From Naegleria gruberi (lineage: Eukaryota), in assembly GCA_000004985.1 (NCBI GenBank), contig GG738869.1: 64,000 bases of DNA; one strand, 5' to 3'. Shown here one piece after another: positions 4,593 through 64,000 of this stretch. The first letter of the stretch is position 1. Every line of letters begins with the position of its first letter. A program made the position numbers and the translations under genes. The notes below the pieces were generated by a model. The model was given only the letters and a program-made list of their open reading frames with translations, was not told where the DNA came from and did not search any database.

Positions 4593-6163
4593 ATATAGGA
4601 CTATTTATTAGATCGGTTCTTTGTCAAATAAGCATTCTTGGTTTTTTAACAGCAAACAGTTCAGCAAAGTTCTTTTCCACAAGTTCATCAGTTTGAAGTT
4701 ATGGTCTTGTTTAGCCCTTGTTTTTGCTTCTTACTAACACGGTTAAGGAAGACTTGAATTTTCCTTTAAATCCGAAAGCATGAGGCAAAAATACATGATT
4801 TACAGTAGCATGAGGCAAAAATCAATCTTGTCTAAAATTCTTAATAAACATGAGCAAGAACATGATTTGATTAATGGCAATTAACGCACAACCCTGAATT
4901 GTTTCATTTTCTCAATTGCTCAATTCAGTCAATCTCTTCATAAATTAGATCTACAACATTTGACATCAACTAACATCAAACTCAATATCACAAGACATTA
5001 TCTCTAATACATTGAACAAGATTCAAAACATTGTAGTTCTTTCAAAAAAACTTCAAGAATCATTGTATACACTACAATGGAGTGCATGTTGTCAACTCTT
5101 ATATCTCACAAATATATGGAGGACATTTTTTCAGTTCCATTTTTGTAACATTTAGCAACAAACTAATTGAATTCACAATAGAGACTTCATGTCGTCATTC
5201 TTCACGCCTTCAACATTCCCATTTAGGCAGCTTTCGTTTATTTACTTGTAGTGGAAGATTTAAATTGGATACTTGTGGCAAAGATCTGAAACACTGTTGT
5301 GTGATATCTTTGAAAACCATCCGCTCTTAGTTGGTGCTTTCTTCATTTTTAGAATTTTTGTAAATTCTCCTTGTCGAATAGATAAACGAAAGTCAAAAGA
5401 AACGATAGATATTTAATCTGAGGATTTCCTCTTACTACGATGATATCATAGATAGTCCAACATTCAAGATCTCTTGCATATTATCCTATTGACATTTATA
5501 TTACATGTGTGTTGTATTATGAGATGAGGAAAGGTACAAATTAACTAAATATCCTATTCGGTAAGGTGTGTATCGATTACGGTTATCTTCTTGTTTTGAT
5601 AAGAAACGAACCCTATGATGTCCAGACAATATATAGAATGTGTATCTCATTGTTTGCGTGAAACCCTTCGACTTGCTTATTAGAAAGTAAACGAAACAGT
5701 GATAAAAAACAAGGTTCATGAATGAAACAGGTGCCCACACAAAGGTTAATTATGGGGCATTTATCTAAAATAACATGAACGCCTTGTTGGAAATAAAAGA
5801 TAACAGGAAAATGTGCTGCCAAACGTCAAACATCTTTTCTCACGAAGAATGAGAAAATGCAAATTGGTAACACAAGCAGAACAATCATCACTAAACAAGA
5901 TTTAAATAAAAAGAACATAAACCTAAAGAACCTGTCAGCTGCCAACACATCAACAGTGAACCATCACAACATTTCATTGGATTACCAAAAGTTTATTGTC
6001 GACTAGTTTGTGATAATATCAGCCGAATTGAAATAACATCAAAGTCTTTGACATATTCTGACATTGTTTCTAATCTCGCAACCTAAACTTGTAAGATCCA
6101 AACAAAGACGTTTCTTCCTCCTCTGCATTCAAGTTATTAGAAATCAAACTTTAAAAAAAAGAG

Positions 6164-7687
6164 ATGATACAACAATCTGCCAGCCAAATGTTATTCGAAA
6201 CAACCAACATGCATTCAAAGAATAATGCACAATTTCAACAAGCTTCCTATTCGAAAGTTCCCCCTTCCACTGCTGTACTATTAAACAATGAGACCCACAG
6301 AACTAATCGCGACAACAGTCCAGTACAGAAAGATATCAGCGACATGTCTGGGTCAACTGGACCATTTGTTTCGAATAACATTTCTAAAGAAAAATCACAA
6401 CAACCACCCATGATGTTACCAAACTTGAGAGATTTACTGAATGAATCAGCACCGCCTTCAGCACATGTTGCAGAAACCTTGTATCCACGTGTCCAGTACC
6501 AACAATCACAGCCACAGAATGGTGGCAACTTTAACTCCAGAAACTTGCATTCATACTATTCGAATACAAACAACAACATGTCTTCCAATCCCATGCATCA
6601 ACAACAATATCCAAATTTGGGTTTTGATAAAATCCCAGCTCACATTCAATCCAACTCTTCCCAACAAAATCCATTATTCGAAACATCACATGCAAGGTAT
6701 TCACCACCACATCCACAACAACATGTATACTCTACTCAACCACCACATACCATACAACCATCACCTCTTCAACAACAACATGTTTCAAGATTATCACCTC
6801 CTCATGATCCACATCCCCTCCAACCAATAACTCATCAACAACATTTAAATCAATCGTCTCCTCCACCACAACAACAACCAATGACACAACAACAACATAT
6901 AAATCCACAAGTGATTGCGAATAGAACAATTCAAGATTTGGAGAGAGAACTCGATTATCAGTCGAGGTTTATTGTAGAGTTGGAGAGGCAGAATAGTGAA
7001 TTGAGAAGGGAGTTGATGCATGTGAGACAACAACAACAGCAACAACATGTACCTTCACAGACAAGTTCTAATGGATCATCTATAGTACCAGCTGGTACTG
7101 CTCGAATGATGCCTATTCGAACAAAGAATGATCCATTCGAAACTGCCAACAAGAAGAGAAATTTTGCAGATGTTCAACCTACTACTGTAGGAGGATCTGC
7201 AGTAACGACCTATCTTACATCGAGTGTAAATGATTCAAAGAAGAGAAAGACAAGCGCATCATCACCAAGTGCGTCATCTGCATCAAATATCTTAGATTCG
7301 AATAATAATAAGGAAATTTCTATTGTTGATGAATCAGTGGACAAGTTAAATACTGCAAACATGCACAAGTATATTGTTAAATGGAAGGGCGAAACCTATG
7401 TTCTAGTCAGCATTTTCAAGAATAGAACCCAAATTCTCAATTATTACGTTCCTCTCTATCAGAGTCAGAATCCAGATAAGGTTTGCAAGATTGTGTTGAG
7501 TAATGAAGATTACAAACAACTTTCTAATGAAAACCCTGACACTGTTGAAAAGAAGAAGCATGCATGGAGAGTTTCTGTGTTTAGTTTGGATTTTTACAAT
7601 TTTGTAAAGAATTTTCAAAAGAAAAATCATCAACAGAAAGCTTCATCCTTCATTCCATTTGATGCCACAACACAAATAAATAAGTAA
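6164..7687 (+). CDS. Low-complexity Q/N/P/H-rich protein (prion-like N-terminal half) with a coiled-coil segment (IQDLERELDYQSRFIVELERQNSELRRELMHVRQQ) and a small C-terminal globular domain. Unknown function.
   Basis: Single 507-aa ORF. Composition and heptad pattern read from the translation. C-terminal motif KYIVKWKGETY weakly resembles a chromo-type motif. Confidence 0.5.
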   Translation: MIQQSASQMLFETTNMHSKNNAQFQQASYSKVPPSTAVLLNNETHRTNRDNSPVQKDISDMSGSTGPFVSNNISKEKSQQPPMMLPNLRDLLNESAPPSAHVAETLYPRVQYQQSQPQNGGNFNSRNLHSYYSNTNNNMSSNPMHQQQYPNLGFDKIPAHIQSNSSQQNPLFETSHARYSPPHPQQHVYSTQPPHTIQPSPLQQQHVSRLSPPHDPHPLQPITHQQHLNQSSPPPQQQPMTQQQHINPQVIANRTIQDLERELDYQSRFIVELERQNSELRRELMHVRQQQQQQHVPSQTSSNGSSIVPAGTARMMPIRTKNDPFETANKKRNFADVQPTTVGGSAVTTYLTSSVNDSKKRKTSASSPSASSASNILDSNNNKEISIVDESVDKLNTANMHKYIVKWKGETYVLVSIFKNRTQILNYYVPLYQSQNPDKVCKIVLSNEDYKQLSNENPDTVEKKKHAWRVSVFSLDFYNFVKNFQKKNHQQKASSFIPFDATTQINK

Positions 7688-7691
7688 TTTG

Positions 7692-10571
7692 TTAGAGCAT
7701 ATCACTTTCAATATTGTTTTGTGCCGTTTCAACTTCGTCTTCAGTTAAATCTATTGAACCTTCAGTTAATTGGAATTTCTCAATATTTACAATGAGCTTT
7801 TTGATGCTTGCAGGAACAAATTTGTTTCCAAAAGCTTTGATACATAAATCCTCTGGGATTTCATTTCTTTCTCGTGGTTTAATTATGGATGGAATATCAT
7901 CAAGCAACTTGTCAAATATAACAGTCTTGTGAGCTTGAAGTTCCTTAACAGCTACATCCACCGATTCTCGGCAAACCAATCTGAAAATTTTGACTTGTTC
8001 CTTTTGATTTTTTCTGACTAATCTGCAAATTGCTTGGTCATCTTTGGCAAAGTTAAAGTCCAAATTGAATAATACAACATTGGTGGCCGTTGTAAGGTCA
8101 ATACCAACACCTCCCGCATTCTTACTAATAAGCAAAGTGTTGATAATTCCCCTATTGAATTGATTGATAATCTCTGCTCTCTTGGGAGATGATGTATCTC
8201 CTGTAAATACACCAATCTTGATTGTATTGTCTTTGCTCAACTCCTTAACAATGACAGAGTTGTAGCAAACTAACCCAGAAAATACGACAACCTTTTCCTT
8301 TTTACCTCCAACTATCCTAGAAACTAAGTTTTTCAAAATTTTCACTCTTGTAGAGCCGGTTAATTTGGGATGGCTTTCTTGAATATATTTCTTGAGGGTT
8401 GTTTGAAAACTCTCAGGTGTTACATCTTCATCGTTATATTCTTGTGAAAATTCTTCCAAATCTTTCTCATCTGATTCTTTCAAATAATCGACACAGTCGA
8501 GGCATAATCTCTGATAAAAGTATCTGGCAAAGTAACACTTAGTTCTGTATTTTTGAGAAATGAACTCGTAAATATCCTTCTCCTCTTTGCTCATTTTAAA
8601 TTCTATGATAATATCCTCTTTCTTTTTTGCAATCTCTTCCATTTCCTTGATATTAACTTTTCTATGAATCAATTCCTTAAAGTAATTGTAAAAGACTTCA
8701 GTTCTAGCAAGAACCTCTCTGTTTTCAATGTTTTTTCTATTTTTAGAGAAGAATTCTGTAAATGTGGAATTAAAACAACGCATCAACTTCCTCACATATG
8801 GGTTCTGAGGTTCTAAAAATCTTATCAACGTGAATATTTCAGCTATACTATTCTGTAATGGCGTACCAGTAACTAGTAATTTGATAGATTTGGAAAAGGA
8901 TGAGAAATGCTTGAATCTTTCAGATTCTGGATTTTTGATAACATGAGCTTCATCAATTACTAAAATATCAGCTTTCTTTAGATACAATGCCTCCTCAGGA
9001 CTATTTTTCAAAATATTCATACACCTGTCATAGGTCATTACCATCATTCTTCCTCCCTTATCGAATTCCAACATTTTGTCGTACATATTTTCATTGTCAT
9101 TCAATACTATAATTTCAGATAAAAATCCTCCAGAAGGAAAATGGTACATGTACTGTTTTGAAAAGTGATCAATATTTGATTTTGGAACAAGAACTAGATA
9201 TTTGAGTGATTTACCAATTTTGTTCTGAGAATATATTCTGTTGTAATTCTTCAATATCAATAGGACCGTAAGTGTTTTACCTAAACCCATAGAATGAGCT
9301 GTAACACGTTAGAATATTGTGTTAATTTCACACTTACCAATCAATAAGGATTTTCCTTGCATCATTCTATTAATGGCCGTTCTTAAACAATCAATTTGGT
9401 GATCCATGACGTAGTCCTGATACTCTAATTCATACTCTCCATGTTGCTTCTTGATAAAGGTGACTGATTCCTTAACCTCCTCGACAATATGTTGATTTTG
9501 AAGTGCCTCCTCTGCCAATTGTTCCTTAAGTTTTAATTTTTGTGCCTCCTGTTGCATCTTTTTGAAACCTTGTTCGTATTGTTGGCGTCTGAAGTGATAG
9601 GCAAGTTTTGTTTTGAACGCTACAACAACTGGAATCTCCCTTCTTGCATACATTCTCAAATATTCTCTGAACTTATTATTATTTTTTTCCATAATGCATT
9701 TTTCAATTTCATCAGCCAATGCTTGTTGCTTTTCATTGAGGATTACTGTTTTGATTATTCTTTCAGTTGGCTCTTCGTCACTCGTTATAACTTCCTCAAC
9801 ACCCTCATCATCAATGAAATCATTCATATCATTCTCTTCATCGACTGTTGGTGCTGATTTTCTCTTTCTGTTTGGTCTCGTATTCTTGTTCAAAGTAGCG
9901 TCCACTCTTTTCTTCTTTTTAACCACTTGCTTGTCAAATTCCTGTAAAGCCAATTGATGAATAATACTATCTCTAAGAGTGGTGTCTAATCCTTTGAAAT
10001 TCCCATTCAATGTATCTTTCAGTTTTAGTAATCTCTCCTCCAACCTTTGCCAATTATCATGAATATCTTCCTTGGTTTTGTCTTGACAAAACTCACGAAT
10101 TTCCTCATCAGTACATTGAAATCTTTTTACATAGTTTTCAATATACATCTGACACTCATCCACTACCTCATCATCATCATTCAATTCTTCTACAGAATAT
10201 TCAATAGCCTTGTCTTCAAAAAGTAATTCTGGGCCATCATCAGAGTCTTCCGAATCAACTTCCGAATCAAAATCATTCAAGTCAATAGAAGACTCATCCT
10301 CTTCATCATTCATATCTATTATATCACCTACATCATAGCTGGCTTCTTCCGATACATCAAATTCTGATGGGGAAATTGGAGGCCGATACATTGGGGCCTC
10401 ATTGTGTTGTTCCATTTTTTTAGAATTTGTTATTTTAGCAATTGAACTGGCTTTCCAAATATAATTGTTAAGAAACTGGTTTGTGTTTTCAATGTTTTGA
10501 TCAAAATTATGAGAATTAGAACAAATTTTCTTGTAAGTGTTGGGAATTCTCAAAGATAAAGTAGTCGGCAT
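7692..10571 (-). CDS. SNF2-family DNA-dependent ATPase (Rad54/ATRX/ARIP4-like), about 950 aa. Two exons joined across a 39-nt intron (about 9299..9337). The splice reconstitutes helicase motif I as ...SLLIAHSMGLGKT.
   Basis: Track ORFs 9309..10571 and 7692..9290 are in the same orientation. GTAAGT..ACAG intron between them. Motif I GLGKT, motif II LVIDEAHVIKN (DEAH box), helicase-C motifs (LLISKNAGGVGIDLTTATNVVLFNLDFN, QAICRLVR). Acidic Ser/Asp/Glu-rich N-terminal region. Confidence 0.8.
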
Positions 10572-11045
10572 TCAAGATACTGGTCGAGATTGAACCTTGG
10601 AATGTTCAATTTCATATTCGAACAAGTAGTATTACTTGGTGATCAACACAAACTCGAAATACAAACATTACTCAACCCGAAACAACAACTTTTTATCATA
10701 CAACCATTAAACCCCAACCGAATTAAAAACAACAAAAAACCTCCTCAACTATCATAGGCTTGATTTTACAGCTCTTTGAAATCTTGTAGCCAAAAATTTC
10801 ACCAACTTCCAAAAAAAACAAAACAGAAAAAATTTACAAGGGTGTATTCTTGCTAATTTCTCTCTTCACGTTTTTTTTTCTTCTCTCTCTCGATCGCATC
10901 CAAGAAGGAAGACACATTGTTATTAGTAGCGTCATTGCTTCATAGTCATTAATTGTGGGAACATACTTTGTATCATCAATAGGAAAATATTTTTCTTTTA
11001 AGAGCAAAGAAAGAGAAAATATACTACAAATTCCGAAGATCAAAG

Positions 11046-13336
11046 ATGGTGAAGGAAAAGTTAACTTTTACAAACCCTAAGAAGGCTAACACAAAAAAGC
11101 CTCAGCCAAAACAACAACAAGTTGGGCAAACTAAACAACCTGTTGCTGAGGAAGTAGCTGCTGAACAAGTTGTTACTACTCAACAACCTGTAGTTACCGA
11201 AGTTGAAGATTCTAACAATGAATTAATCAACAAAATCAACAAGGAAATTAGACAATATAGAAAACAAGTTGTAAAGCACAAAAAGCTTCATGAAGATGTA
11301 AGTCATTTACATAGCAAAGCCTTTTCTAAAATGTAATAGATTACCAATCAATTGGATTTTAATATTGCTATTCCGACAATCCCTTCCCACCTCAACAAGA
11401 AGGATCTTTCATTCGAAGAGATTTTACAAAGAAAGAATTTCGATGCTCAAATCGAAGAATCAAAGAAGAAGGAAAAACAATTGAAGGATATGATTGAAAT
11501 TTTAGATAATGAAAACAAATCATTGGAGGTTCTCGAAACTATTCAAAGTAGTATGAGTAAGATTTTCAATGAGGTATGTAGTAGACTTTTGATTCGGAAG
11601 TAATAGTCTAACAATTTTTCTAATAGCATGATTCACGTCAAACAAAACTTGAAAAGGACTTGAAACAATTGCAAAAGGATGTTAAACAAAAGGATCAACA
11701 ATTGGAGGAATTGAATCAAACTCTTAATCATACCAAATTCCAACTTTCTCTGCAAGTTAACAACAAGAAGGAAAATGTTTCAAAAATCACTAGCTTTGAA
11801 CAACAAATCAATGAACTTACTGAACAAAACACAAAACTCTTGAAACAAAACCAGGATGTGGAATCACTCAAAACTGAAATTACTCGTCTTCAATCTTTGA
11901 ATTCAAATTTATCCAAAACACTTGAGGATCAAAGACAACAATCTTCCCAACAATTAATGGTTCAACACAATGTGATAGAGGAACAAAAAAAGCTTCTCCA
12001 ACAAAAGGAAGAAACATTAATGTTCAACTTTTCCAGATTTAACCAAGTGAATACAGAATTAATGATGATCAAACAACAATTTACCGACCAAGACAAATTC
12101 ATCAAATTCCAACAACATCAAATTTCTCTCAAATCTGAGGAAAATAACTCTATCACAAAGGAGGTTAATTCATTGAAAGAGGAAAACTCTTCAGTTGTGA
12201 AAAAGAATCAAGACTTGTTGGACAATATCAAACAATTGGAAGAAAAGATTGCTAATTTGGAAAACTCTAACAAGCAATTATTAGATAAAATGCAAAGAGA
12301 TGAAAATGACCACAAACATTCTATACAACAACTCGAAGAACAATTAAAGCACAGACCAATTGTGACGTTCCCTGTAAAGTTTGAAGAGGATATAATTAAT
12401 GAAGCTTTGGACAAGAAGAGAACCAAGGATATTGTTCAACTTATTCAAGTTTTGAGTTTTTTCAATATTTCTAATCCAGACTCATTCGAAAGAAGATCCA
12501 TGTTCCTTTCAGACCAACTTTGTATTAGCCAAACTGGAAAACAAGTATCAATTTTGACTCACAACGATTTTGCAGCTGTAGATGCTCTTTCACGTTCCCT
12601 CTTTGGTCAACAACAAAATATTGATCAAGTGGAAAATTGTATTAATGATGGAGTAAGAAAATTAGAAAAAATTATTGCAAGATCTGAAGATGATTCAATT
12701 ATTGGAGTTTCATACAAGATTTTAGCAGAACAAATAAGAGAACTTGCCTCTTCGAGTATCTACCAATATGGCAAGACTTTGTATCCATACTTGGGTCAAG
12801 ATGAACATTCCTTGACTAGTAATTCTATTTTCAATACTAATGGTTATAATATTAGAATGGATGATGCAAATCAATCAAGCTCATCTCCAAAACTTAAGAG
12901 TAATTTTATTAATACTGACATTTCTTCCACAACTTCTGAAACTAAAAAATCCACCATAATTGAGAATAAGACATTTGAAGAAACTCCATCATCCAATATT
13001 AATGTCACATACGAGGTTCCATCTGAACAAACATCATGGAAATTGGAAGTTACAAACAACAATACAAATGTTGAATCCACAACACCAAGTGCTCCAATAG
13101 AAAGTGACATAATTAACACCTCACCTGCCAATCCAAATGTTGTCTCTACCACAGAAGATGAAAATTCAGTTCCTTCAGCTCCATCTCCTTCATTAGAACA
13201 ACAATCTGAAAATGGTGAAAATCTGACGAAGAAAAAGTTTACAAACAATTCCAGAGGTAGAGGAAGAGGAGGTTTTGTTCCAAATTCACGAGGCGGCCGT
13301 CAAAGAAAACTCTTTGTACGAACAGATAATAAATAA
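11046..13336 (+). CDS. Coiled-coil protein with basic N-terminus and C-terminal RGG/RG motif (NSRGRGRGGFVPNSRGGRQRK). Three exons. Introns at about 11298..11339 (42 nt, GTAAGT..TAATAG) and 11574..11626 (53 nt, GTATGT..TAATAG).
   Basis: Three track ORFs (11046..11336, 11352..11603, 11660..13336) join in frame through the two short introns. Long heptad-repeat regions and an RGG tail are seen in the translation. Confidence 0.6.
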
Positions 13337-13387
13337 ATATTGTAAAATTAAAGTTTTTCAATGTTTTAATTCCAATTATTTTTACAA

Positions 13388-13936
13388 TTATTTCTTATTT
13401 TTGATATTTTCACTCAACCATTCCAAACCTTCATTTATACCAATTCCATTCAGTGCAGATGTTTTAAATATTGTCCATGTTCTATTCTTTATCTTTGTTA
13501 AATTCAATTGTTCAGAAACTTCTTCAACACTCATAGCATTCTTGGCATCTTGTTTGTTAGCCATAATTAAAAGTATAGAGTCTTTCAACTCCTTTTCATC
13601 GAGCATTGCAAAAAGTTCTTCTTTAGCAATACCCATTCTTTCTCTATCACTTGAATCAACAACATAAATAATAGCATCTGTGTTTGCATAGTAACATCTC
13701 CAATATGGTCTAATCGATGTTTGACCTCCCAAGTCCCACACTTGGAATTTTATATTCTTGTATGTTATTGTTTCTACATTGAATCCGATTGTAGGTATTG
13801 TTGTAACAGCTTCTCCTACTTGTAATCGGTAGAGAATTGTTGTCTTACCAGCATTGTCTAATCCCAATATTAAAATACGCACTTCTTGTTCGCTATTAAA
13901 GAGTCCTCCAAATATTGAAGCAATTAAATTTCCCAT
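13388..13936 (-). CDS. arl1: ADP-ribosylation factor-like GTPase ARL1 (182 aa).
   Basis: [13 protein letters not shown] (myristoylation Gly2), G1 [19 protein letters not shown]. Near-colinear identity to ARL1 recalled from memory ([83 protein letters not shown]...IL...ANKQD). Confidence 0.9.
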
Positions 13937-14432
13937 GTTTTTGTTTTTTTAAGTTACAATATATTCCTAGTGATATGTATAGTCCTGATGATGATGAAGC
14001 AATAGTTTGTTATATATTATTCAGTCCAATTACTTTAAAAATCAACCTTCTCCTTTTTTTAAATTACTCTAATGTACACAACTTCCGTTATTATTAAAAT
14101 TTACAAGTACAGCTGCTGTCTACTATTGTATCCGAAAGATTAAGCTGTTATAACAAGTGGCAAGGTGTGTTTTAAAGCCAATTTTTTTATATTGAAAGGA
14201 ATTGATGAGTCATGAACAGATGATGATGACTTGGAGTTTATGAATAATAATAAAATATGACGTCATAATGGAAGGGAAATGGATTGTGATAAGATGATTC
14301 TCTTGATGGTAATGATAATAAGATAACCAAAAAGCACAGTATATTATTTTGATGAAGAATTTAAAAAACAATGATGAAGAAGTTTGCGTTAATTTCCAAA
14401 GAGCAAGAACAAAAAAATTCAACTAGTAAACT

Positions 14433-16149
14433 TTGAAAAAGCACACAATGTCCTCCCTATTGCCCAAAACACAGGAAGACCAACAAGCAACAATAGTAGT
14501 AGAATTGGAGGAGAAGAATAAATTGAAAAGAGTTTTGGATCAGGTAGAATCATCTTCATCAATAGAGGAAAAACCACTAGTCAGCAATAAGAAGAGAATT
14601 AAATTATTTGATGAAATTGAGAGTAAACAGGGTGTTTGTTGGCACTTTAGAAAGAAGGGATTTTGCAAATTGGGCTCTGAATGTAAATTCCGACATATTA
14701 AAGTGGATGATTATGGATTAATTATTGAAAATGATTTGTCATCTTCTAATAATTCATCATCTTTGGATAATAATTCAAATACAACATTAGGAAATAATTT
14801 AGAGGAACCTACATTATCATTAACAATAGAACCATCATCACTCTCTAATAGTACATCATTAAATGTTGAACAACCAAGGAGAAAACTTTGCTATTGGATT
14901 TCAAAGGCTAAAGAAACAAAATCAGCAACCTCAGCTTTACGAAGAACTTACGAAGAGAATGGATTTAATTTAATACTCTCCACTGATAATACCGAAACAG
15001 AGAATTATACAGCAGTTTTCTGGGGACATACCTTCCCTCATACTTCAGACCTTTGGAAAAAGTTGCCATCCTACACTTACATTAATCACTTCCCTAATTC
15101 ACACCACTTATCTAATAAGAGTTTGATGGCAATGAATTTTCAGGAAATATCTAAGGATAATTCCTCAATCAAATTCAAATCAGAGTTTATTCCTCATACA
15201 TTTTACTTTCCCTCACAAATTAATTTATTCTTCAATTATTTAAAGACTGAAAAGGATGATATTTGGATTATTAAACCACAAGGTTCAGGCGAAGGAAGAG
15301 GAATCAGATTATTTTCCAATTCTAAACAAATTTTACAGGAGGAATTTCCAACAATACCAACCTCAGAAATAGAGTCTGGGTTTGTCTCTGAGGAAACTTT
15401 GAAAAGGAAGGAGATTAGAAAACACAAGATTGTTGTTTGTAAATATGTAAGAAATCCATTGTTAATTAATGGTAAAAAATTCGATATGAGATTGTATGTT
15501 TTGGCTGTGGGATCCTTCGAAGGACCTTTCAACAACTCCACATAGAGCCTATCTCTATAAGGATGGTATTGTAAGATTGGCCAGCGAGGACTATACGGAA
15601 TCAGAGGAAACTCTCACTAATGCATTCATACACATTACTAACAATACTGTAAATGATAAGAAGAATCGTCCTCAACATGAAACAGCCAAGTCCCAATATG
15701 GATTCTTTTGTAATATGAATTTGAATGAATTGGAAGAATACTTCCAAAAGAACTCTTTGGATTACCAACTCTTCTGGGATAGACTCAAAAATCTAGTTTC
15801 AGAATCATTGAAAATGACAATATTTAACACTGAAAAACAAGATGATACATTCAAAGCCTGCTCATCGAAATGTTTTGAAATTTATGGATTTGATGTAATG
15901 ATAGACAAGAATTTGCAACCTTATTTATTGGAAGTTAACTCAATGCCTGACCTTTCTGCTGTCAGTAATACTAGCCACTTGGTATTAAACAAGGATTTCA
16001 CCATCAAATCTAAAATGCTTGTCAATGCCCTCAATCTCATTGGCATAACAATCGAGGATGAAAACACAGTCCTGAGCCGATTCATCAACATTTCAGATTA
16101 CAACACTGATGACTATCTCAATAATTTTGAGAAAATAATTTATCAATAA
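14433..16149 (+). CDS. Tubulin-tyrosine-ligase-like (TTL/TTLL family) protein with an N-terminal CCCH zinc finger (CWHFRKKGFCKLGSECKFRH). Apparent +/-1 frameshift around 15500..15545 inside the conserved RLYVL...YLYKDGIVRLAS block.
   Basis: Track ORFs 14433..15545 and 15496..16149 overlap by 50 nt in different frames. Together they give the TTL signature FDMRLYVLAVGS / AYLYKDGIVRLASEDYT and downstream ATP-grasp motifs (EVNSMPDLS). The only candidate GT..AG introns shift the frame wrongly. Confidence 0.65.
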
Positions 16150-50012: not shown

Positions 50013-51199
50013 AAGTTTTTTCAAAAAACTGCTGTACTGATTTTTTTCAATATTCCCTAAAGCTCCTCACCTAAAGCAATAATAAGGACTTTGTGAGCGG
50101 ATTTTGAATGATATTGGAGCAAAATTTGTCGTGCCCAACTCAATTTTCCATCACTACAAGATATTAATCACCGCGTTTCATTTTGCTTTTTGTAATAAAA
50201 GTTGTAAAGTTATGACGTTGGATAGCTTTATAGAAAAAAATACCATCACCAACTGACAAACCAAAAATTATTACCTCCCAACAATAATTAGTAACATCAC
50301 ATCCTACCTCGTCTCTTAGGTTGAGTTCTTTTATAAGAAAGTTCTTTTCATGTAGAGGTGTTTTATAATTATTCCAAAATTGAAGTAATTGTTTTACTAC
50401 GAGGTAAACTCACAACAAATTCTCAAGGAGATGATGTTGTGTTTTGGGATGTAATGTTTCTTATTATGTCAGAAAACATCTAGTAAGGAATGATTTATTT
50501 AGAAGAAGAACAACAACAATATTTAGAAGATATAAAACCATCACTGTGGGCTGATGATTTTCAGCAATAATTTAGAGAGACCAAACAAAAAATGATTTAA
50601 TATTGCAACATACAAACACACCACTTCAGCACCAACAGCAAGTAATCGTCTATGGAAAACTTCATCAAAGAGGGTCTCCTTTTTTTCATCACTAAATTCT
50701 ATTGATGAAGCATCATGACTATATCCGAGGATTGTGAAACAACAACCAACAGCAGGCTTTTACGATGATTCCGCACATTTGAATGAAGTATTAGTTTAGA
50801 TCAACTGGTACTGAAAAGGAGAAAAAGTATGCTGCTTGTTTGGCTCCTACCTCATCACTTGCTGTTGCTTTTTGTTATTTACTCCTGAATGCGTTGCTAT
50901 CTTATATATGATTGTGATGTGTTTAATTAATAAGTTGGAGTGGGAGCAGCAACAGGGTAATAAATGTAAGTACCTACGATTTATTTGAAATTTTACCTTA
51001 ATTCCATTTCATAATTGACACCATGGAACATTTAAGGTGAAATCTTCACCAAAATAATAATTTGAAATAGTCAGTTTTGGAAAATGATGTCAGAGAATTT
51101 GATATTTATGAGTGTAATCTTTTCACATTTCAATTTGGTTGGTGCTATACATTCCATCATCAAGACTTAAGGTCCTGCCATTAATTAGAAACTGTGATG

Positions 51200-52110
51200 C
51201 AAGAAATAGTAACTGTTGTTGATGGAACTGTTTTAGAAGATTTAGCAAGTATTAATGTTGTCTACACAACAGCAACTGTTGCCATCTAAATCCTTACAAC
51301 TCTGAAGGTGAATTCATTTTGAAATATGATCCTCCAAGGGAAACTATGTTCATTCTCACTGATTAAAAGCTGATTTTACCGTTTGATTTGAGTGTAGACA
51401 TTTACAATAGATGATTCTCTTACACATACAGAGGTGAAAGAGATGCACTGATGATGTTCTTTCAACTCTTCAGTTTTGACTCAAGTCAAATTGTCTATTC
51501 AGTGGAAGGTATGGATGAGTTATCTATATAGTAGACACTTATAACTTTAGAATTAGAAAGCTATCAATTACCAATAAGACTATCATATTTATTACTTATC
51601 GGTGGACAAGAAGAAGGAAAACTTTGGAAATGAATATTACTGATACTCTTGCTCAACCAACAGGACTTGCTTTTTTCAGAATTCTGAACATGCTTCAATT
51701 AACACCATTCCATATACATTGCCTACAAGTTTTACATCAAGATTGTCAATGATCTTACAATAATTGCAAGATCTAGTGCTCCACCAACTCCAGGTCTGAG
51801 TTAGCAGCTCCTGTTCCTACTCTCAATACAACTATTGCCCCAACAAGTATTGCAGTTGGTGAGGATGGAAAAGTAACACACCCTCAAAATGTTAACACCT
51901 GCTCCAACCTGAACAATTTTTGTCGTGGCTAATACTGGATAATATCGGTCCTATTGAGGATGATGGCTTGGCTATTAGTTCTTCATTTATTACTGTTTCC
52001 TCTGAGGAGATTATTCTTGCTGATTGTATGAACAATAGAATTAGAAAGATTTGTGGAGAGGGAGTCATTACTACCAGTGGCTAATGCCTATGACTAAGAG
52101 AGATGTTTGA
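51200..52110 (+). pseudogene. Decayed NHL-repeat gene fragments, for example LADCMNNRIRKICGEGVITTSG and PTIAPTSIAVGEDGKVTHPQNVNTC, interrupted by stops and frameshifts.
   Basis: NHL-like motifs (aD..NnRIRKI...G.ITT.aG) recur in several frames. No continuous ORF. Related in motif to the intact NHL gene at 62615..64000. Confidence 0.3.
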
Positions 52111-53329
52111 AAGTAATTGACCTAACCTTTCATTTTGCGTATTGTATGGAATGAAATGTCTCTAGTCAAAGAAGTGTTTTTGAGAATTGTGAATAGTGCT
52201 TCAGTGATCGTTTGGGCTCTTGTTGATGGTAAGGAAATGAGTAGAGATATCAAAAAGATTGCATATGATTTTGCCTTCTTTACTATTGATGTTTCACAAG
52301 TTTGCCAAGGAATTGTAGTCATTCAAGTTATGTTAATATTCGTAAAAAAATTGAGAAAATGACTCTTTGCCACCTTGCTGATTTTCGAAGTGGTTTCTCA
52401 GCACCAAACTTTCACATCATCATCTAAACATCAATTTAGTAGTAATATAGTAATTTTTATTGGAGTATTTTCTTCATTATTTTGGAATTTATCTTCATGA
52501 TGAAAAATCACAAGTTGATGAATCATCAGAACATTATTGTTGTTTTCCATCAATATAATAATTTTATTTGTGGAAATTAATATATAGTAATGAAATTACA
52601 CTAAAATCTTCATCACCGTTGGATTTAATGGAAAAGTTGGAAAACTATTAATGTGGCATTGTTGGAAATGGACAATAGTATGATATAAAACTTTGTTTGA
52701 TCACTTTTCATCAAGTATTGATAGAGATAGGTACATGTGAATTTTGAAAACTAACATGAACATTACTCCATGTGTACTTCAACCAACTTGAATACAATCT
52801 TATAGAACTACTAGTACTATTTAAATCACGAATAAACACCATATTCATCATCAAATATTCGTCATCTTGTCGATTACGGAATTTCATTCCACCAGTGTTG
52901 ATTCGGGCCCAACAACAAAATATTAACAATAAAACAATTACCAATACTATTGTTTACATGTTTTATGTTAAATGATCGTAACGATCATCAAGATCATCCT
53001 GTTTTTATTGCATTTCTCATGATAATCAGAAATGTCACAGAGAGTGCCACATATCCATTCTACTCTCAATAAATAATAGTTCCTTTTTACACATGTGCAA
53101 CTTTGCTTATAAACATGATGAATTCATATATTAAAGACTCCAAAGGCTAGTATAATCCTCAATGTGATGTCTAATAATACCATTACAACTTAAAGATAAT
53201 TATCTTATAATTTCATTGAATATGAATTGAATTTGTAAATTGACATAAAACAGTGGTTTATTGTAATTTGGTTTAAAAATAGCTTTCTAAAGCACCTTGT
53301 TGTATCTTGTTGTGACATTTACTAAAAAA

Positions 53330-54385
53330 ATGGCAAAAGCACCAGCACAAATTGTTATGGAGAACAAATTGCGGAAATCATTAACATTAAAACAATTCAT
53401 AGAATTATCCAAGTCTACAAGAAAAAGGAGATTAGATAATCTTCGTAAGAAATTCTTTAATTCAAATTTATTTAAATATTCTTGGAGTAAATGGCGAGAT
53501 GCTATTATCGGAACAAACAATTCAATCCAATATTTATTAAAACAAAGAAAAAACATAAAAAATAATTTATCAACATCTACAATTGATACAATAATTCAAC
53601 AATTAAAAGAGGAAAGGAACAAATCTACAAAAAAAGAATCCAAAAAAGATTTTGAAAAAAAAATTAATAATTTATTACAATCTAAAAATTTATTCAAAAT
53701 CAATGTTAATTTGATATTATGTAGTAATTTGGCTAATACTATTCAACTAATGTTTTTAAGAAATATACTTCCCGAAAATACCACTACTGAGGTAACCAAT
53801 ATATTGGATAAAATTAACCAAAGAAGATCAAAGGAAAATTATTATATAGGAAGTTGGGGAAAGAGTTCTTCTTTTCTATTTAAAACTAATGACACTATTT
53901 TTAATGAATTATCTTCTCAATTTATTAAAATTATTAATTTATTAAAAAATTATGTTTTGGAAATATTGAAATTTGGAAATAACAAGATGAGGAAATTCTT
54001 AGAAAAATACAATAGTAGTGATTTTTTATCAATTTATCCGACAGTGTGTTTTAATTTTTTGGATAAATCTGTAGATGAAAATAGAATTCTACATATTCAT
54101 CCGGATAAGGAAGACACTGGAACTAGTCTAATTTTTTACTTTGGAAAGTTTAAAGGTGGAGCAATCTCATTTCCTGAATTAAATTTTAAGCTTATGGTTC
54201 AATCAGCAGATGTTTTATTGTTTGATGGTAAGAATAATTTACATGCTGTTGAATCACTTCATGGTAAAGATGATGTTAGATATTCCGTTGTATTCTTTGC
54301 TCATAAAGCAGACTTGGGTAAAACTAGTTATCCCATGAATAGAGGAGAAGTTATGAAAGGTATTAAGAATAAAATCAATAATTAA
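53330..54385 (+). CDS. Tet/JBP-family 2-oxoglutarate/Fe(II)-dependent dioxygenase (5-methylcytosine oxidase type). Small single-domain NgTet1-like form, about 350 aa.
   Basis: C-terminal core: HIHPDKEDTGTSLIFYFGKFKGGAISFPELNFKLMVQSADVLLFDGKNNLHAVESLHGKDDVRYSVVFFAHK. It aligns motif-for-motif with my recollection of the Naegleria NgTet1 core: HxD iron ligands, SL.FYFG.F, VQ..DVL.F.G, the second His (HAV/HVV), and R..V.FAHK for 2OG binding. The N-terminal half is extremely K/N/I-rich. Track ORF 53297..54385; first ATG at 53330. Confidence 0.75.
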   Translation: MAKAPAQIVMENKLRKSLTLKQFIELSKSTRKRRLDNLRKKFFNSNLFKYSWSKWRDAIIGTNNSIQYLLKQRKNIKNNLSTSTIDTIIQQLKEERNKSTKKESKKDFEKKINNLLQSKNLFKINVNLILCSNLANTIQLMFLRNILPENTTTEVTNILDKINQRRSKENYYIGSWGKSSSFLFKTNDTIFNELSSQFIKIINLLKNYVLEILKFGNNKMRKFLEKYNSSDFLSIYPTVCFNFLDKSVDENRILHIHPDKEDTGTSLIFYFGKFKGGAISFPELNFKLMVQSADVLLFDGKNNLHAVESLHGKDDVRYSVVFFAHKADLGKTSYPMNRGEVMKGIKNKINN

Positions 54386-56134
54386 ATTTTAAATAATTAT
54401 TTAAATAATTTTTATAAATAATTTAATTGTATTAAAAAAATGTCTCCACACTTTAACCTCGAATTTTATTCGAGAAGCACAACAGTAATAGATGAAAGCA
54501 CTCTCGGTGGGCTTGATTTGATAATAACACACTTATACATCCTCTTGTAGGAGTATAATTAGTGTTGTTGTTGTGAGTTGAGGACGTTATTTTAATTCCT
54601 TTTCCCTTCTTCCAAAGTTTCCTGTTCAAACTTTGTTGCTTCCGTAAATCATATTATCAACAGGAAAGATCATTTAACTGCGAGCATCGTTGTTGGATAC
54701 AAACTATGCATTGACAATTCTTTTAATTATCTTGAATGTTTGGTAATTGATGGCAATGTTCATATAATCAACTCTCACCAAAGAAGAATTCTAAAATATA
54801 TCTAATGATCAGGCTGTTGATTTTCAACAACATACAGGTATTCGGAGCTATTGTAAAATAATTGTTTTACTTTGATGATTCAAATGGTTTTCAACAACTA
54901 ACATAATTCTTATCCATCTTGCAAAAAAAGAGGATACCATGACAGCAATCAACTTATATCAATATTGAAAAATCATTAGGAAATTATTCAGAAGTAGCAT
55001 GCATTGTAATTGTTGCGTTCAAAACATTTCTCAACATTAAATTCTTTCTCCACAATCAAACCCTGCTCAGCAACAATCAGAAGAGGAGCCATCTTTTAAT
55101 CTAACTTGCCATCTATGTTGAAGGAATGTACATTTAGAAATCAGTGATGTTCACCCTGAATGTGATGGATCTTTTTCTGGCTACTTGTATTGGTTGCTCC
55201 AGTAATTGCACATATGGAGGCTCTTTTAATGTTTCCAATAACCAAACTATGCTGGTGATTCCACTCCCAACCAAAACCCTATCAAAAAGAATTCTTCTAT
55301 ACAACTAGTATGAGTCATAGAGCTGTTGTCTTTCGTCCACTTTTAATAATAATATATGGTATGCTTTTGTTCAGGCTGTAATGTTTCGAGTGCAATTCAA
55401 CACCAGTGTTTTCATTCCAACCATGATTGGATCATATCTCCAAAGAGGACACTGGGTATTATTACTATTTAAAGTTGGCTACTAATAGTGAAATCTACTT
55501 GTTCGATCCAATGTTGGATGCCAAGTTCACTAGTGCTGAGCTGGCTATTGATATTTCAGATATCCTTTTTGTTTGTTGTCACTACCACCCTATTATTCAA
55601 CTTCTAGGTTTACGTTTCAAGAATCATGGGTTTATTTGGTTTAAGATGTTATGTTTCAGTATTCACGTAAATATGATGCAAGGAGGACACTTATTGCTGC
55701 TGTGGTGGTAATAGTAGCATTACCTTAGGTGTTGTAGTGTATACTACTTCATCATCTATTAATACTTATTCTCCAATTACTCAAACAAAGACAATTTCAA
55801 TCAACATTCACTATGTCAGTGCTTAATTATTCCAAGTTGTACTAAAACAACATCACTAACAAGGTGCTAAACAACTATGCTTTCCATTTCAACGCAGAGG
55901 CATATGTCTTGCGTTTGGGGCAGAGATTTAGTGCTTGAATAGTGGTTAAACAACAATGGATGGGCATTTTGGCAACTGGTTTTCAGTAGCTTCACATTCA
56001 TGTTGTTTGACTTAACAAACACTTTGGCTGCAATCTATTCACTCTTTATCCATCATTTATTCATCATTTACACCAATACTGTATTGTTTACATTTTGTAT
56101 GCTAGCTGGTTATTATTATTAATCATTAAAAAAA

Positions 56135-58864
56135 ATGGGAGTAGCGACACTTTTTACCAAAGCTGACGTTTTAAATTCCCACAACATCAAAAAGCAAAAA
56201 GAAACCAAACGTCCTGCCTTTGAAGGTGATAATGATAGATCGATTGTGGCGGCAATTAAAAAAACAAAACAACAAGCATCCAACGACTTTGAGTATTACA
56301 AGACATACAAAGAAACAGATTTCACTAATGAACAGAATTTTAGTTCAATAATTTATCAGATAATGCTAGTTCTATTGCCCTATTTTGTTTTTAAAATAAC
56401 CTCAGGATTATTAGATTTTGAATCAATATTATTATACTTTCTAGTCTCCACAAAAAAAGGCAAAGATTTATTAGCACAAGCCAATCTATATAGTACTGAG
56501 GGTGTTTCTTGGTGTGAAGCAATAGTATTTAAAGCAATTTGTAATGCAGATATAAGTATAGGGAGTTATGGTAGATTTATTGGTTGTTTAGAAGAATCTA
56601 GTAAATCAGACACATCCAGAAATAAGAAAAAGGCAAGACATTTTTTACCATCACTCTCTACAATAACAAAATATTCAAGTAGTTTACATCAAGTATTAGA
56701 TATCAATCATGCTGCAGATAGCGAAGGACTTTATTGGAGAATATTTTGTTCATCCATAGAACTTAATGACAGGACATTCAGATATGCAACGCTTCAAAAT
56801 GCAGAATTGTTTTTATTCTCATTTATTCGCTACCATGAAATGATCATAGGAGAATATATCTTCTTTGTAAAGATAAGATGTACTGTTGATGGTTCACCTT
56901 TAGAGGGAGCCTGTACTGCGTATGATATTGTATTAATTCATCCCAAGATAGATCCATTTTGTGCTCGTAATTATATTTCTGTTATTATTGCCGAGCCTAA
57001 AGAGGAAATAGCGTTCAAATTAAACATCTGGGATTTCTCTCGCCAGTTAATGCGTATCACACAGTTGAAATACTCTGTACCTAATGAAGAAACAAGAATT
57101 ATTCCTGTAAAATTTATTACCAACCCTGATAAGGGCGCCTTTAACAAAATTATAGATGTGGAAAAGGTAACGCCAATTTGTGATCCTATTTTTAATTTGG
57201 TAAATCTTTATTGCCTATTATCAATGATTTTCAATACAGATAATTCCTTAATACTACCTCTAATTCCAACAATAAGAGGAGATTGTAATAATGATAGCAA
57301 CAAAGCAAAAGGACAAGCAAATCTAGCAAAGGTTATGGAAATTAAAAAGATTATGCCTGAAACGTTACCTTATTACCACAACATTCCAACAAAATCCCAA
57401 ATATTTACTGATTTTCAATTAGATGAAGATTCTATTTTTTTAATTGAAAAATTTATCATTAAGAAACCTCAAACAGATTATTTATGTTGTATGTTTTGTT
57501 ATTTAACTAAACAAACAAAAAGAATAGCATTGAAGTATCCTGATTTGTGTACATGGAAATGGTACAGATCAAACGAAAGCTCAAGTAATGCTTTAGGCTG
57601 GCCTTTTAAAAGTTTTTCATGGTGTCTTTCGCATGATATAAGAGCCTGTGGTCAGAATCTTATTGAAGAAGAGGTGGGACAAATTGAAGAAGATAGACAA
57701 TATTTTGCCAAATTATTCAGTTCTGAATCTCCAATTGCCTCTTTGAAATGTGGTTCTAAAAAGCTAATTAATGAACAACTAGATGCCAACCTTGTTTCTG
57801 AATTTGAGTTTTGTCAATGGAGTGTATTTGAATTAAAGGTGAAAGAAGAAAAAAAGAAAAACAAAACAGGAACAGAGCTACGAACTAGTTCAGTTAAACT
57901 AATCTATGATCAGATTTTGTTTAAACAAATAGACAAAATTATAATGACAATAGATGTTTGGTATCCTCATTGGCTCACATATCGAGAAAACAAACAATTA
58001 CAGGTTTGTCAATCCCTTAACAATAATCAATCATTTGAAGATTGTACAAATGAAGAACACTCCAAGCGAGGAACATACAAACCAAAAAACTATGAACATA
58101 TATGGAAAGCTCTTCAAAAAACATACATTACTCTTCGCCAACCAAAATCTAAATGGTTAGAATGGAAGAAAACTGGATATCAAGAGCCATTGCTAATATT
58201 TAAGAATTTAAATAAGGTTTGGATAAAAGATATTTTAGGAAGAATATCAGAATATTTACACATTCATCAACATGCAGATATTGTGTTCGATGAAGTAGAA
58301 GAATCATTCGTAACAACATCAAACATTGGATCTGAATCTAAAAATTCTTTAAGAAGGAAGCGTCATGTTTCATTTGGAGTTAATGGTGGTTTAAGACATC
58401 CTTGTGATGATTCTTTATATTATGACAGCAAAAGAATTCTTAATGAATTGAAGATCCTTGCTGAGACTCCTAATATTATTGCAAGACAAGATGAGATCAA
58501 AAGAAAACAAGTTTCCGAAAAAGAAAAACTCACACAACCAAAAAAGAAAAGAAAATCTGAAACTACTACACAACCCAATCCAATAAGCTCAACCAATTCC
58601 TCAATTAATTATATCAATCCTTCCCTATTACAACCTCTACTTCCAGATAATTTTAATTCAATTACATTACACAATCAACACTCCTTCTCACCTCCTATAT
58701 ATATTCATCCTCTTCAACTCCAACCTCCACTAACTAACAATTTAACATTTTCTCAATTCAATCCTTCTCAAAATTCCAATAACCAACCAACATCTCCTTA
58801 CCAACCATCATCTCCATTTTCATTCTTTTCATCCTCCAATCCATCACCAAACTCCTTTTTATAA
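56135..58864 (+). CDS. Orphan 909-aa protein immediately downstream of the Tet/JBP gene. Cys/His-containing central region (CCMFCYLTKQ...CTWKWY...SWCLSHD...C), then a Q/N/P/S-rich low-complexity C-terminus. Unknown function.
   Basis: Single uninterrupted ORF in an otherwise ORF-free 9-kb stretch. No recognisable catalytic motif by eye. Confidence 0.45.
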   Translation: MGVATLFTKADVLNSHNIKKQKETKRPAFEGDNDRSIVAAIKKTKQQASNDFEYYKTYKETDFTNEQNFSSIIYQIMLVLLPYFVFKITSGLLDFESILLYFLVSTKKGKDLLAQANLYSTEGVSWCEAIVFKAICNADISIGSYGRFIGCLEESSKSDTSRNKKKARHFLPSLSTITKYSSSLHQVLDINHAADSEGLYWRIFCSSIELNDRTFRYATLQNAELFLFSFIRYHEMIIGEYIFFVKIRCTVDGSPLEGACTAYDIVLIHPKIDPFCARNYISVIIAEPKEEIAFKLNIWDFSRQLMRITQLKYSVPNEETRIIPVKFITNPDKGAFNKIIDVEKVTPICDPIFNLVNLYCLLSMIFNTDNSLILPLIPTIRGDCNNDSNKAKGQANLAKVMEIKKIMPETLPYYHNIPTKSQIFTDFQLDEDSIFLIEKFIIKKPQTDYLCCMFCYLTKQTKRIALKYPDLCTWKWYRSNESSSNALGWPFKSFSWCLSHDIRACGQNLIEEEVGQIEEDRQYFAKLFSSESPIASLKCGSKKLINEQLDANLVSEFEFCQWSVFELKVKEEKKKNKTGTELRTSSVKLIYDQILFKQIDKIIMTIDVWYPHWLTYRENKQLQVCQSLNNNQSFEDCTNEEHSKRGTYKPKNYEHIWKALQKTYITLRQPKSKWLEWKKTGYQEPLLIFKNLNKVWIKDILGRISEYLHIHQHADIVFDEVEESFVTTSNIGSESKNSLRRKRHVSFGVNGGLRHPCDDSLYYDSKRILNELKILAETPNIIARQDEIKRKQVSEKEKLTQPKKKRKSETTTQPNPISSTNSSINYINPSLLQPLLPDNFNSITLHNQHSFSPPIYIHPLQLQPPLTNNLTFSQFNPSQNSNNQPTSPYQPSSPFSFFSSSNPSPNSFL

Positions 58865-58897
58865 AATAAAAGGAATAATTTAAATTATAATAATTGT

Positions 58898-59659
58898 TTA
58901 ATATTTATTCCATTTAACAGATTCATCAAGCATAGAGCAGAAATAATCAAATTCAATTCTAATCATCTTCTCTTCAGGTTTGTAAATTAATTTAAATTGA
59001 TTAATTCCAAATTTCCATAAAATACCATCATGCTCCCATTTAAATGCATACCACTTATCACTAAACAAAGGAGGAAGGCTATAATTTCCAGCAAACAACC
59101 AATGATATGTTATCTTTGGAACTATTCTTCCTTCCCTTGCAATGCCACCCTCAATCAACATCTCTTCTTTTAAAATGCTATATGGTTTTGCCTTTTGTAT
59201 TTGATAATCAAAGAATAGCTTTGCTTCGTGATCATCTGTTACAGAAACATAATGTTGATGATGCCACTTGACATTATGGGTTGTATCTGGCTGAGCATTT
59301 CTAATAACTACCTCCTCAATAGTTCTCGGAAGTACCTTTAGGTATCTTGTTGCATAATATTCATCAGAATATTTTTCATCCATTATCTCACGCAGTGTTA
59401 TTGTTGGTAGGGAAGTATCAAAAAAGTATTCAAGTTGTTGTCTTTTCTCTAATGGTATGTTCACTTTCTTACTCTCTTCACTGCCTTCAAGAATGTTTGT
59501 TACTTGGCGTTTAGCTGTTTTCAAATCATCAACCTTCTCTACAACAAAACGTATTTTGTTTGTATTGTTATTCTTCTCCAACGATTTATTCATAGCTACC
59601 CTCTTACTTTTGCTCAACCTGTATACTTCAAACGTTACTTCTGTTTTGTTGGTGACCAT
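58898..59659 (-). CDS. Hypothetical 253-aa globular protein, unknown family.
   Basis: Single ORF with balanced composition (for example WYAFKWEHDGILWKFGINQFKLIYKPEEKMIRIEFDY). Stop is only about 34 bp from the stop of the 909-aa ORF, in convergent orientation. Confidence 0.45.
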   Translation of the reverse strand: MVTNKTEVTFEVYRLSKSKRVAMNKSLEKNNNTNKIRFVVEKVDDLKTAKRQVTNILEGSEESKKVNIPLEKRQQLEYFFDTSLPTITLREIMDEKYSDEYYATRYLKVLPRTIEEVVIRNAQPDTTHNVKWHHQHYVSVTDDHEAKLFFDYQIQKAKPYSILKEEMLIEGGIAREGRIVPKITYHWLFAGNYSLPPLFSDKWYAFKWEHDGILWKFGINQFKLIYKPEEKMIRIEFDYFCSMLDESVKWNKY

Positions 59660-62614: not shown

Positions 62615-64000
62615 ATGTCACAACATCAAACAACACTACAACTACTCATTTCCCTGTTTTTATTTTTGATTGTTGTTCAATGCACAGCATCAACAATGGA
62701 ATACAATACTAGTCTATCATTTGGTATTGATACACTGGTTGGCTATGATCCGAATAATGGAAATAATCTTCCTTCAATATATGCCAATTTGAATCCCAAT
62801 AATTTGACATTTGGCACGAATACAAAGATAATGTTCATGTATGATGGTGTTAGGAATGCCATCATGAAACTTGATCTGAAAACAAATCTGATTTCGAAAT
62901 TAATTGATTTAGAATATAGAGCGCTCTCAATATTAGAAACTAGAAATGGAATTTTATTTACAGATGCTCAAGGAAGGAATATTAAAATGTTGGCCAATGA
63001 TTCAATTTCTATTGTGGCAGGAACATTAACAACAGGATATTCAGGTTTGTTGATCTTGGGATGATTTTATTTTAAACTAATATTTGATATTAAAAGGGGA
63101 TGGAATTGCAAACGAAACGAAACTAAACTCTCCAAAGGGATTAATTGAGGATGGTAATGGAAATATTTATTTCATCGATTACTATAATTATAGATTGAGG
63201 AAATTATCAGGTAATATGATTTCAACAATAGCTGGTGATGGAAAGAATGAAAATAATGGAGATGGAGGATCAGCTCTAAAGGCCAACTTGAAAAATCCTT
63301 CCAATCTGGCACTAATTGACCACAACTTATACATTTTATGTGATACAGCAATAAGGAGAATTGATTTAATCACAAGTAAGATTTACAGTTTCTCAGTTGA
63401 AAGTCCATTCAAATTTACTGGAATTTTCCAAGCCAATGGAACAATTTTTGTTCACTCTGCTACTGCAATTGGTAAAATTCAATCCAATCAGAAGATTTCT
63501 ATCATTTCCGGATCAGCATCTGTATCGGGTCCTTCTGTAAATAATATTCCAGCAATTGATGCCTTATTCAAACAAATAAGTTCAATTGGGGTACTTTCGT
63601 CTGAGTTAGGGGATGTTATTTATGTTTATGATTCTTCAAATAATGATATTAGGGTTATTAATGAGACTCGTTTTATTAATCTGTTGGCTGGTGTTAAATC
63701 TTTGAAAGCAAATGTGGATTTATCGGCTCCTTATTTTATTTCTAATGATCCAATTGGACTTGCTGAGCTGATTAATGGTGATTTAGCCTTTTCGCATTCA
63801 GGTGGAATTGCCAAATATTCCAATGGATTGATAACAAACATAGTCGAATCTTCTAGCCCAATATTAGGAATTGCTTTCTATGAGAAAGAGGATGAGCTCT
63901 ATTATGTGGATTCGAACTCAAAAATTAAAAAGCTCAAAGATGGAGAAACGATACACGTAGCAGGAGCATCGAATGGACAAAATGCAGACAACATTCCAGC
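62615..64000 (+). CDS. Secreted NHL-repeat (beta-propeller) protein, partial (continues past the window end). Exon 1 is 62615..63044; there is a 52-nt intron (63045..63096); exon 2 runs from 63097.
   Basis: Signal peptide MSQHQTTLQLLISLFLFLIVVQCTAS. Repeats such as NIYFIDYYNYRLRKLSGNMISTIAGDG and DVIYVYDSSNNDIRVIN. GTTTGT..AAAAG intron restores the frame. Open to position 64000. Confidence 0.65.

Follow-up and report, generated by a model that had tools for sequence, protein, structure and literature searches.

An AT-rich Naegleria gruberi gene predicted to encode a compact NgTet1-like Tet/JBP dioxygenase, and its linkage to two gene families shared with Willaertia magna

The best structural model of the Tet enzymes comes from Naegleria gruberi, whose enzyme NgTet1 is used in sequencing chemistry. 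NgTet1 has been characterised structurally and biochemically, and the Tet-like family of Naegleria has been published (PMC4678852). In NgTet1, R224 stacks on the base and forms an ion pair with 2-oxoglutarate, F295 also stacks, and hydrogen bonds to the base are made by D234 (N4), H297 (N3) and N147 (O2); the methyl pocket consists of A212, V293 and F295. D234, which reads N4 of cytosine, determines the preference for cytosine, and the A212V mutant yields 5-hydroxymethylcytosine (5hmC) only (PMC4678852). Here we analysed a 64,000-nucleotide stretch of N. gruberi contig GG738869.1 (the window), in which an open reading frame (ORF) at positions 53330 to 54385 of the plus strand had been assigned to the Tet/JBP family in an initial annotation made from the sequence alone. 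Homology and structure modelling support the prediction that this ORF encodes a compact NgTet1-like Tet/JBP dioxygenase. Since the window is N. gruberi DNA, the gene is a paralogue of NgTet1 and does not extend the family to a further organism; it is a known gene of a known family, already present in the databases with the right domain assignment. What is contributed here is a corrected model of 351 amino acids (aa), the prediction of a cytosine-type pocket carrying K178 and C240, a quantified anomaly of composition and a linkage shared with Willaertia, the last being the only new lead.

The ORF runs uninterrupted for 351 codons from an ATG at 53330 to a TAA at 54383-54385. This ATG lies in an A-rich context and is the first one past the in-frame stop at 53294-53296. 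No stop was found in the 362 codons of this frame, while the remaining five frames contained 13 to 53 stops each. Random codons of this guanine-plus-cytosine (GC) content would include about 9.6% stops, and the composition-based probability of an open frame of 362 codons was ~1e-16, indicating that the ORF is real and maintained.

When the product was compared with all Protein Data Bank (PDB) sequences using phmmer, the sole match was NgTet1 (4LT5, 5CG8/5CG9; E = 3-5e-21). This match covered query residues 114-335, and 31% of its 218 aligned positions were identical. An AlphaFold model was then built on a 16-sequence family alignment. Residues 121-345 (53690-54364, plus strand) were predicted to form the catalytic double-stranded beta-helix core, with a predicted local distance difference test (pLDDT) of 76-98. 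The best Foldseek match was again NgTet1 (5CG9/4LT5/5CG8; E = 7e-21, template modelling (TM) score 0.79 on the target, root mean square deviation 1.8 Å, 231 columns). CcTet ranked next (E = 1e-10; about 15% identical), followed by CMD1 (4e-9), FTO/AlkB-type enzymes and TET2 (about 5e-6); the matches to CMD1 and TET2 were much weaker than that to NgTet1. The predicted fold is a double-stranded beta-helix of the Tet/JBP type; NgTet1, CcTet and CMD1 all outranked the AlkB/FTO-type dioxygenases. The comparison with 4LT5 that the initial annotation had called for was in agreement with its family assignment, which was further supported by the predicted fold and the conservation of the active site.

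The only invariant columns in the 16-sequence alignment were H257, D259, H305 and R317, which constitute the iron triad and the predicted 2-oxoglutarate-binding arginine. The HxD ligands H257-P258-D259 (cat ccg gat, 54098-54106, plus strand) correspond to H229 and D231 of NgTet1, the distal iron ligand H305 (54242-54244, plus strand) to H279, and R317 (54278-54280, plus strand) to R289. The triad and the arginine had been claimed beforehand, together with three NgTet1 core patterns. SLIFYFGKF, VQSADVLLFDG and RYSVVFFAHK are present in the ORF, but the third pattern had been given one residue too short, and R...V.FAHK is what the two proteins share. Among the residues contacting the base in NgTet1, R224, D234, V293, F295 and H297 are retained as R252, D262, V321, F323 and H325, respectively. 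Two pocket positions are changed, N147 to K178 and A212 to C240, and both variants recur in other paralogues outside the NgTet1 clade, including XP_002676528.1. A full-length divergent paralogue with Lys at the O2 contact and Cys at the iterative-oxidation position offers a construct for studying substrate and product differences among the paralogues.

The oxygenase half of Tet_JBP was the sole Pfam match of the 351-aa ORF, and no JBP-type DNA-binding domain or SNF2 ATPase was found in it using Pfam. The protein resembles NgTet1, from the same organism, in its compact single-domain architecture. With the kinetoplastid JBP1/2, mammalian TET1-3 and Chlamydomonas CMD1 it shares the Tet/JBP double-stranded beta-helix core and the cofactor ligands, but it is far smaller and lacks a Cys-rich insert and the CXXC, JBP DNA-binding and SNF2 domains. 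The first 120 residues (53330-53689, plus strand) are basic, with 30 K+R against 10 D+E and an RKRR...RKK stretch, and were predicted as helical at low confidence (pLDDT 32-67). This extension is unrelated to NgTet1, and no homologue of it was detected when 1.84 billion cluster representatives were searched with HMMER. It may serve as a nuclear-targeting or DNA-affinity appendage.

The last 211 aa of the ORF are 100% identical to XP_002676954.1 (EFC44210.1, UniProt D2VG54), which is named "hypothetical protein NAEGRDRAFT_79850 [Naegleria gruberi]" and labelled in UniProt as a Fe2OG dioxygenase domain protein with a precomputed Tet_JBP Pfam match. Five further ORFs of the window are exact N. 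gruberi proteins (EFC44207, EFC44208, EFC44211, EFC44212 and EFC44290), all on one 747-kb scaffold. The database model starts at M141 (53750-54385, plus strand) and is truncated relative to the fold, as it omits 140 N-terminal residues, some of which lie in predicted beta-strands of the catalytic core (E122-124, E128-132 and part of E137-143 in the AlphaFold model). The similarity to NgTet1 begins at aa 114, several homologue alignments extend 5' of position 53750, and the 151 codons preceding the annotated start contain no stop (P ~2e-7), whereas the other two frames have 10 and 16. Furthermore, at 357 aa the W. magna homologue is of similar length, and the best stretch aligned by HMMER runs colinear with the ORF (query 101-348 vs 107-352), although BLASTP similarity between the two was detectable only from query aa 174 on. 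Because strands and NgTet1 homology lie 5' of M141, the upstream codons are open and the W. magna homologue is colinear, the 351-aa ORF is a better gene model than the 211-aa entry. The truncated protein probably would not fold, which is relevant for anyone expressing XP_002676954.1. No paper in the literature collection searched cites this accession. An NEB patent reportedly lists it as mYOX8; none of the literature matches listed for that patent name, mYOX, was relevant.

In the HMMER search, only 32 matches were obtained at E <= 1e-3, and the closest apart from the gene itself was 33% identical. They included the N. gruberi proteins XP_002676528.1 (583 aa), XP_002668594.1 (207 aa) and XP_002674105.1 (174 aa), the W. 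magna protein KAL9657964.1, a chytrid protein and a relative encoded on an environmental contig together with PPR-DYW genes, which was taken as heterolobosean. The sixth protein in the list (P0006, 1689 aa, L005 8911-13980), matched by 13 short stretches, was a bacterial cadherin-repeat protein and was discarded as a false positive. Eight NgTet paralogues were reportedly described by Hashimoto et al. 2014. The N. gruberi paralogues and the environmental heterolobosean homologues belong to the same lineage-specific family as the ORF and keep the invariant H, D, H and R, but are only 23-33% identical to it; XP_002676528.1 also has the Cys and the Lys at the A212 and N147 positions. A neighbour-joining tree was poorly resolved. 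In this tree the ORF fell outside the NgTet1 clade, and its grouping with the W. magna homologue had 18% bootstrap support. Judged by its similar length, colinear layout, tail (YPMNRGE / YNMRKGE), similar amino-acid bias and shared neighbouring genes, KAL9657964.1 is a candidate orthologue, differing in its low identity (29% over 175 aa) and in the order and orientation of the neighbours.

The initial annotation had described the gene as far more AT-rich, and its product as richer in K, N and I, than all neighbours, and both statements hold. The GC content of the ORF was 25.3% (19% at third codon positions), the lowest of the 29 long ORFs (at least 200 aa) in the window; the remaining 28 had 31.6-40.6%. 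Of all 1056-bp segments in the 64 kb, the one with the lowest GC (23.3%) starts at 53386, while the minimum elsewhere was 29.5% (z = -3.3). The trough was centred on aa 1-250 (20-24%), and the catalytic C-terminus reached 28-30%. K+N+I made up 31.9% of the protein, the highest value among all long ORFs (next 28.4%). The combined share of F, Y, M, I, N and K was 44%, against 34% in NgTet1, and 44.5% in the W. magna homologue, whose GC content is typical for its own genome (about 28% GC), unlike that of the N. gruberi gene.

The observed/expected CpG ratio was 0.49 in the gene and 0.43 in the whole window, and no signature of the kind left by repeat-induced point mutation or other CpG-specific mutation was seen. 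The CpG ratio is not informative here, since N. gruberi methylates all CN contexts; its 5-methylcytosine (5mC) marks silent genes and repeats (PMC12344493). Across the window, CpG depletion was accompanied by an excess of TpG (1.25) and CpA (1.31), and it stands despite a reported genome-wide 5mC level of only 0.28% of cytosines that is not CpG-specific (PMC12344493). We read the AT-richness of the gene as the likely outcome of rapid, lineage-specific evolution of a weakly constrained gene under AT-biased mutation, and C-to-T decay through deamination of 5mC might aggravate it if the locus is methylated.

Taken together, the ORF is probably a functional, fast-evolving Tet-like paralogue of N. 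gruberi, the same gene as XP_002676954.1 with a true product of 351 aa. Several observations weigh against this view. First, the match to Pfam PF12851 (Tet_JBP), the profile against which the initial annotation had proposed to check the protein, was found (E = 3.3e-5), but its 23.6 bits are under the gathering score of 34.9. NgTet1, a proven enzyme, itself gave no match to PF12851 at E <= 0.01, and the cutoff was not reached by any of seven further relatives scanned, the heterolobosean ones scoring at most 32 bits. As the profile is insensitive to this clade, the threshold is uninformative here, and domain-based censuses would undercount the clade. Second, no orthologue above 33% identity was found among the 1.84 billion cluster representatives, so that purifying selection was not measurable. 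Third, the pooled GC content of the window's short ORF-free intergenic gaps was 30.0% and that of its coding sequence 34.5%; the gene, at 25%, is below both, and simple drift towards the local background is not a full explanation of its composition. Fourth, a lysine occupies the position of N147, which contacts O2 in NgTet1. Finally, N. gruberi DNA has yielded no detectable 5hmC, and its 5mC content is just the 0.28% mentioned above (PMC12344493).

The enzyme most likely works like NgTet1, as an Fe(II)/2-oxoglutarate dioxygenase. A 5-methylpyrimidine would be flipped out of duplex DNA and stacked between R252 and F323, with its edge read by D262 and H325. The C5-methyl group would then be oxidised at an iron coordinated by H257, D259 and H305, and 2-oxoglutarate would be anchored by R317 and R252. 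We favour 5mC, with moderate confidence, as the most likely substrate, and thymine would be a minor or alternative one. The initial annotation had cautioned that 5mC and thymine cannot be told apart from sequence, which was correct. Conservation of the Asp corresponding to NgTet1 D234 leans towards cytosine. As A212V restricts NgTet1 to 5hmC, the Cys at this position (C240) may reduce iterative oxidation.

The same fold might instead act on another substrate, by hydroxylating mainly thymine as in JBP-like formation of 5-hydroxymethyluracil, or by modifying RNA m5C or another base. This alternative draws on K178, since K or H replaces N147 in most paralogues outside the NgTet1 clade, and on the lack of detected 5hmC, for which thymine or RNA targets were suggested by the authors of that study (PMC12344493). 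NgTet1 also has minor thymine activity that is raised by D234N (PMC4678852). However, the residue determining the cytosine preference stays Asp in the ORF (D262) and is not Asn, the counterparts of H297, F295 and R224 are likewise kept, and the JBP-type DNA-binding and SNF2 domains are absent. We therefore consider a non-5mC substrate possible but unlikely.

Next to the Tet-like gene are a 909-aa gene (XP_002676955.1, NAEGRDRAFT_67858; 56135-58864, plus strand) and, 34 bp from it, a 253-aa ORF (58898-59659, minus strand). Both have homologues near the W. magna Tet gene. On W. magna contig JBEGDK010000009.1 (L002), where KAL9657964.1 is encoded at 10001-11074, positions 4118-6448 match the 909-aa gene (BLASTP 3e-22, 26% over 320 aa) and positions 3282-4076 match the 253-aa ORF (BLASTP 7e-17, 25% over 235 aa); the two homologues are 42 bp apart. 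A Cys/His cluster is kept in the 909-aa family, reading C-C-x2-C in N. gruberi and C-x-C-x2-C in W. magna, followed after about 41 residues by C-x2-H. When the 21-kb W. magna locus was compared with the 64-kb window using tblastx, only the Tet, 909-aa and 253-aa genes matched. The gene order is Tet(+), 909(+), 253(-) in N. gruberi and 264(+), 749(+), a 3.5-kb gap and Tet(+) in W. magna, the cluster spanning 6.3 kb and 7.8 kb, respectively.

Chance co-location of the three families is very unlikely. Residual micro-synteny, a functional cassette and a mobile unit could each account for their linkage, and with two instances these readings cannot be told apart. On a reading of rather low probability, the three genes form a conserved but internally reshuffled unit of the vahlkampfiids (Naegleria, Willaertia), which would have stayed together as its surroundings changed, either an unrecognised mobile element or a functional DNA-modification cassette. 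In a cassette, the 909-aa and 253-aa proteins would act with, or downstream of, the oxidase. A mobile element carrying a Tet would be the equivalent, in a protist, of the fungal KDZ-TET/JBP units. Either kind of unit could relate to the aberrant composition of the Tet-like gene and its ORF-poor surroundings. The partner genes were absent from four other Tet-bearing environmental contigs in hidden Markov model searches, and no further members of either family were found in scans of metagenome and viral contigs.

The ORF-poor surroundings consist of an upstream flank of 3.3 kb (50013-53296) with a longest stop-free stretch of at most 81 codons and a coding-like GC content of 32%, and a downstream flank of 1.75 kb (54386-56134) with a longest stop-free stretch of at most 94 codons. 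Apart from the Tet-like gene, these 6 kb are free of ORFs (GC 32-33%), which is long for this gene-dense window. At about 51.5-52.1 kb, two fragments show a sub-threshold resemblance to NHL repeats (Pfam E 0.17-0.21), with a 15-aa match to an NHL-like gene at 63081-63998. They may be decayed genes. Searches for tRNA genes and Rfam families gave no matches close to the Tet-like gene.

The initial annotation had raised a foreign or mobile origin. On such a reading the Tet-like gene would have arrived with, or would move with, the 909-aa and 253-aa genes, as what a mobile element carried or left behind, or as foreign DNA. This would explain the outlying GC content and the ORF-poor flanks. The clustering of three families within 6.3 kb and 7.8 kb, in differing order and orientation with nothing else shared, also speaks for it. 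There is also a fungal precedent, as TET/JBP genes are carried by Kyakuja-Dileera-Zisupton (KDZ) and other DNA transposons (PMC12730594). Like these, the N. gruberi genes are compact, expanded in a lineage-specific manner and linked to a large uncharacterised ORF. Unlike them, they showed neither a transposase signature nor terminal repeats, and only one copy of the Tet-like gene lies in the 64-kb window.

No convincing terminal inverted or direct repeats were found around the gene or the three-gene cluster in N. gruberi or W. magna, and there was no second copy of the Tet-like gene within the window. Positions 53278 and 59318 carry a 35-nt direct repeat (77% identical), which was taken as chance and not as an element boundary. 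Neither the 909-aa nor the 253-aa protein had a Pfam, PHROG or PDB match, so that no transposase could be assigned. A resemblance of the 909-aa ORF to CACTA/KDZ-like transposases, seen by eye as a motif, was not supported by Pfam at E <= 10 or by PDB sequence and profile searches, and a single-sequence AlphaFold model of this protein reached a pLDDT of only 35. The GC content of the 909-aa and 253-aa genes is not as low as that of the Tet-like gene (31.5% and 33%), and the partner genes are missing from the other environmental Tet loci. A viral origin was also rejected: IMG/VR contained no relative by pattern scan and tblastn, PHROG gave a single marginal match, and the viral structural matches in BFVD (E = 3e-13, 12-17% identity) were far more distant than NgTet1. 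With heterolobosean nearest relatives, far weaker viral matches and no terminal repeats or extra copies in the window, a foreign or mobile origin of the Tet-like gene is not supported, and we regard it as improbable.

That the gene is decaying and non-functional, with AT-richness reflecting mutational erosion and the open frame a leftover, would fit its GC content, the lowest among the long ORFs and under the 30.0% of the short ORF-free gaps, the apparent gene remnants around it, the failure to find a close orthologue and the truncated database model, but is highly improbable given 362 open codons where about 9.6% stops are expected (P ~1e-16), the intact four invariant catalytic and five NgTet1 base-pocket residues, and a confidently modelled catalytic core.

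Further features were noted in the neighbouring genes. The 909-aa protein has a long tail rich in S, P, N and Q, and a GC skew of -0.6 to -0.9 at 58450-58900 lies over its C-rich, Pro/Ser/Gln/Asn-rich low-complexity C-terminus. The 90% cluster of XP_002676955.1 is represented by an unrelated 54-aa fragment from a bacterial metagenome-assembled genome, a clustering artefact, and the protein was missed by a large word-indexed protein search because this fragment served as the cluster representative. At L003 2970-6143 and L004 3137-5416, the environmental Tet homologue P0007 is followed at a distance of about 1.1 kb by a 1057-aa ORF on the opposite strand; this ORF had no Pfam match, and similarity between it and the 909-aa family was not detected. 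On the W. magna contig, two genes with SprT-like domains were found at 12660-15880, 1.6 kb from the Tet homologue, and one of them also had Chromo and weak HMG-box matches. These genes may be chromatin- or DNA-repair-related neighbours.

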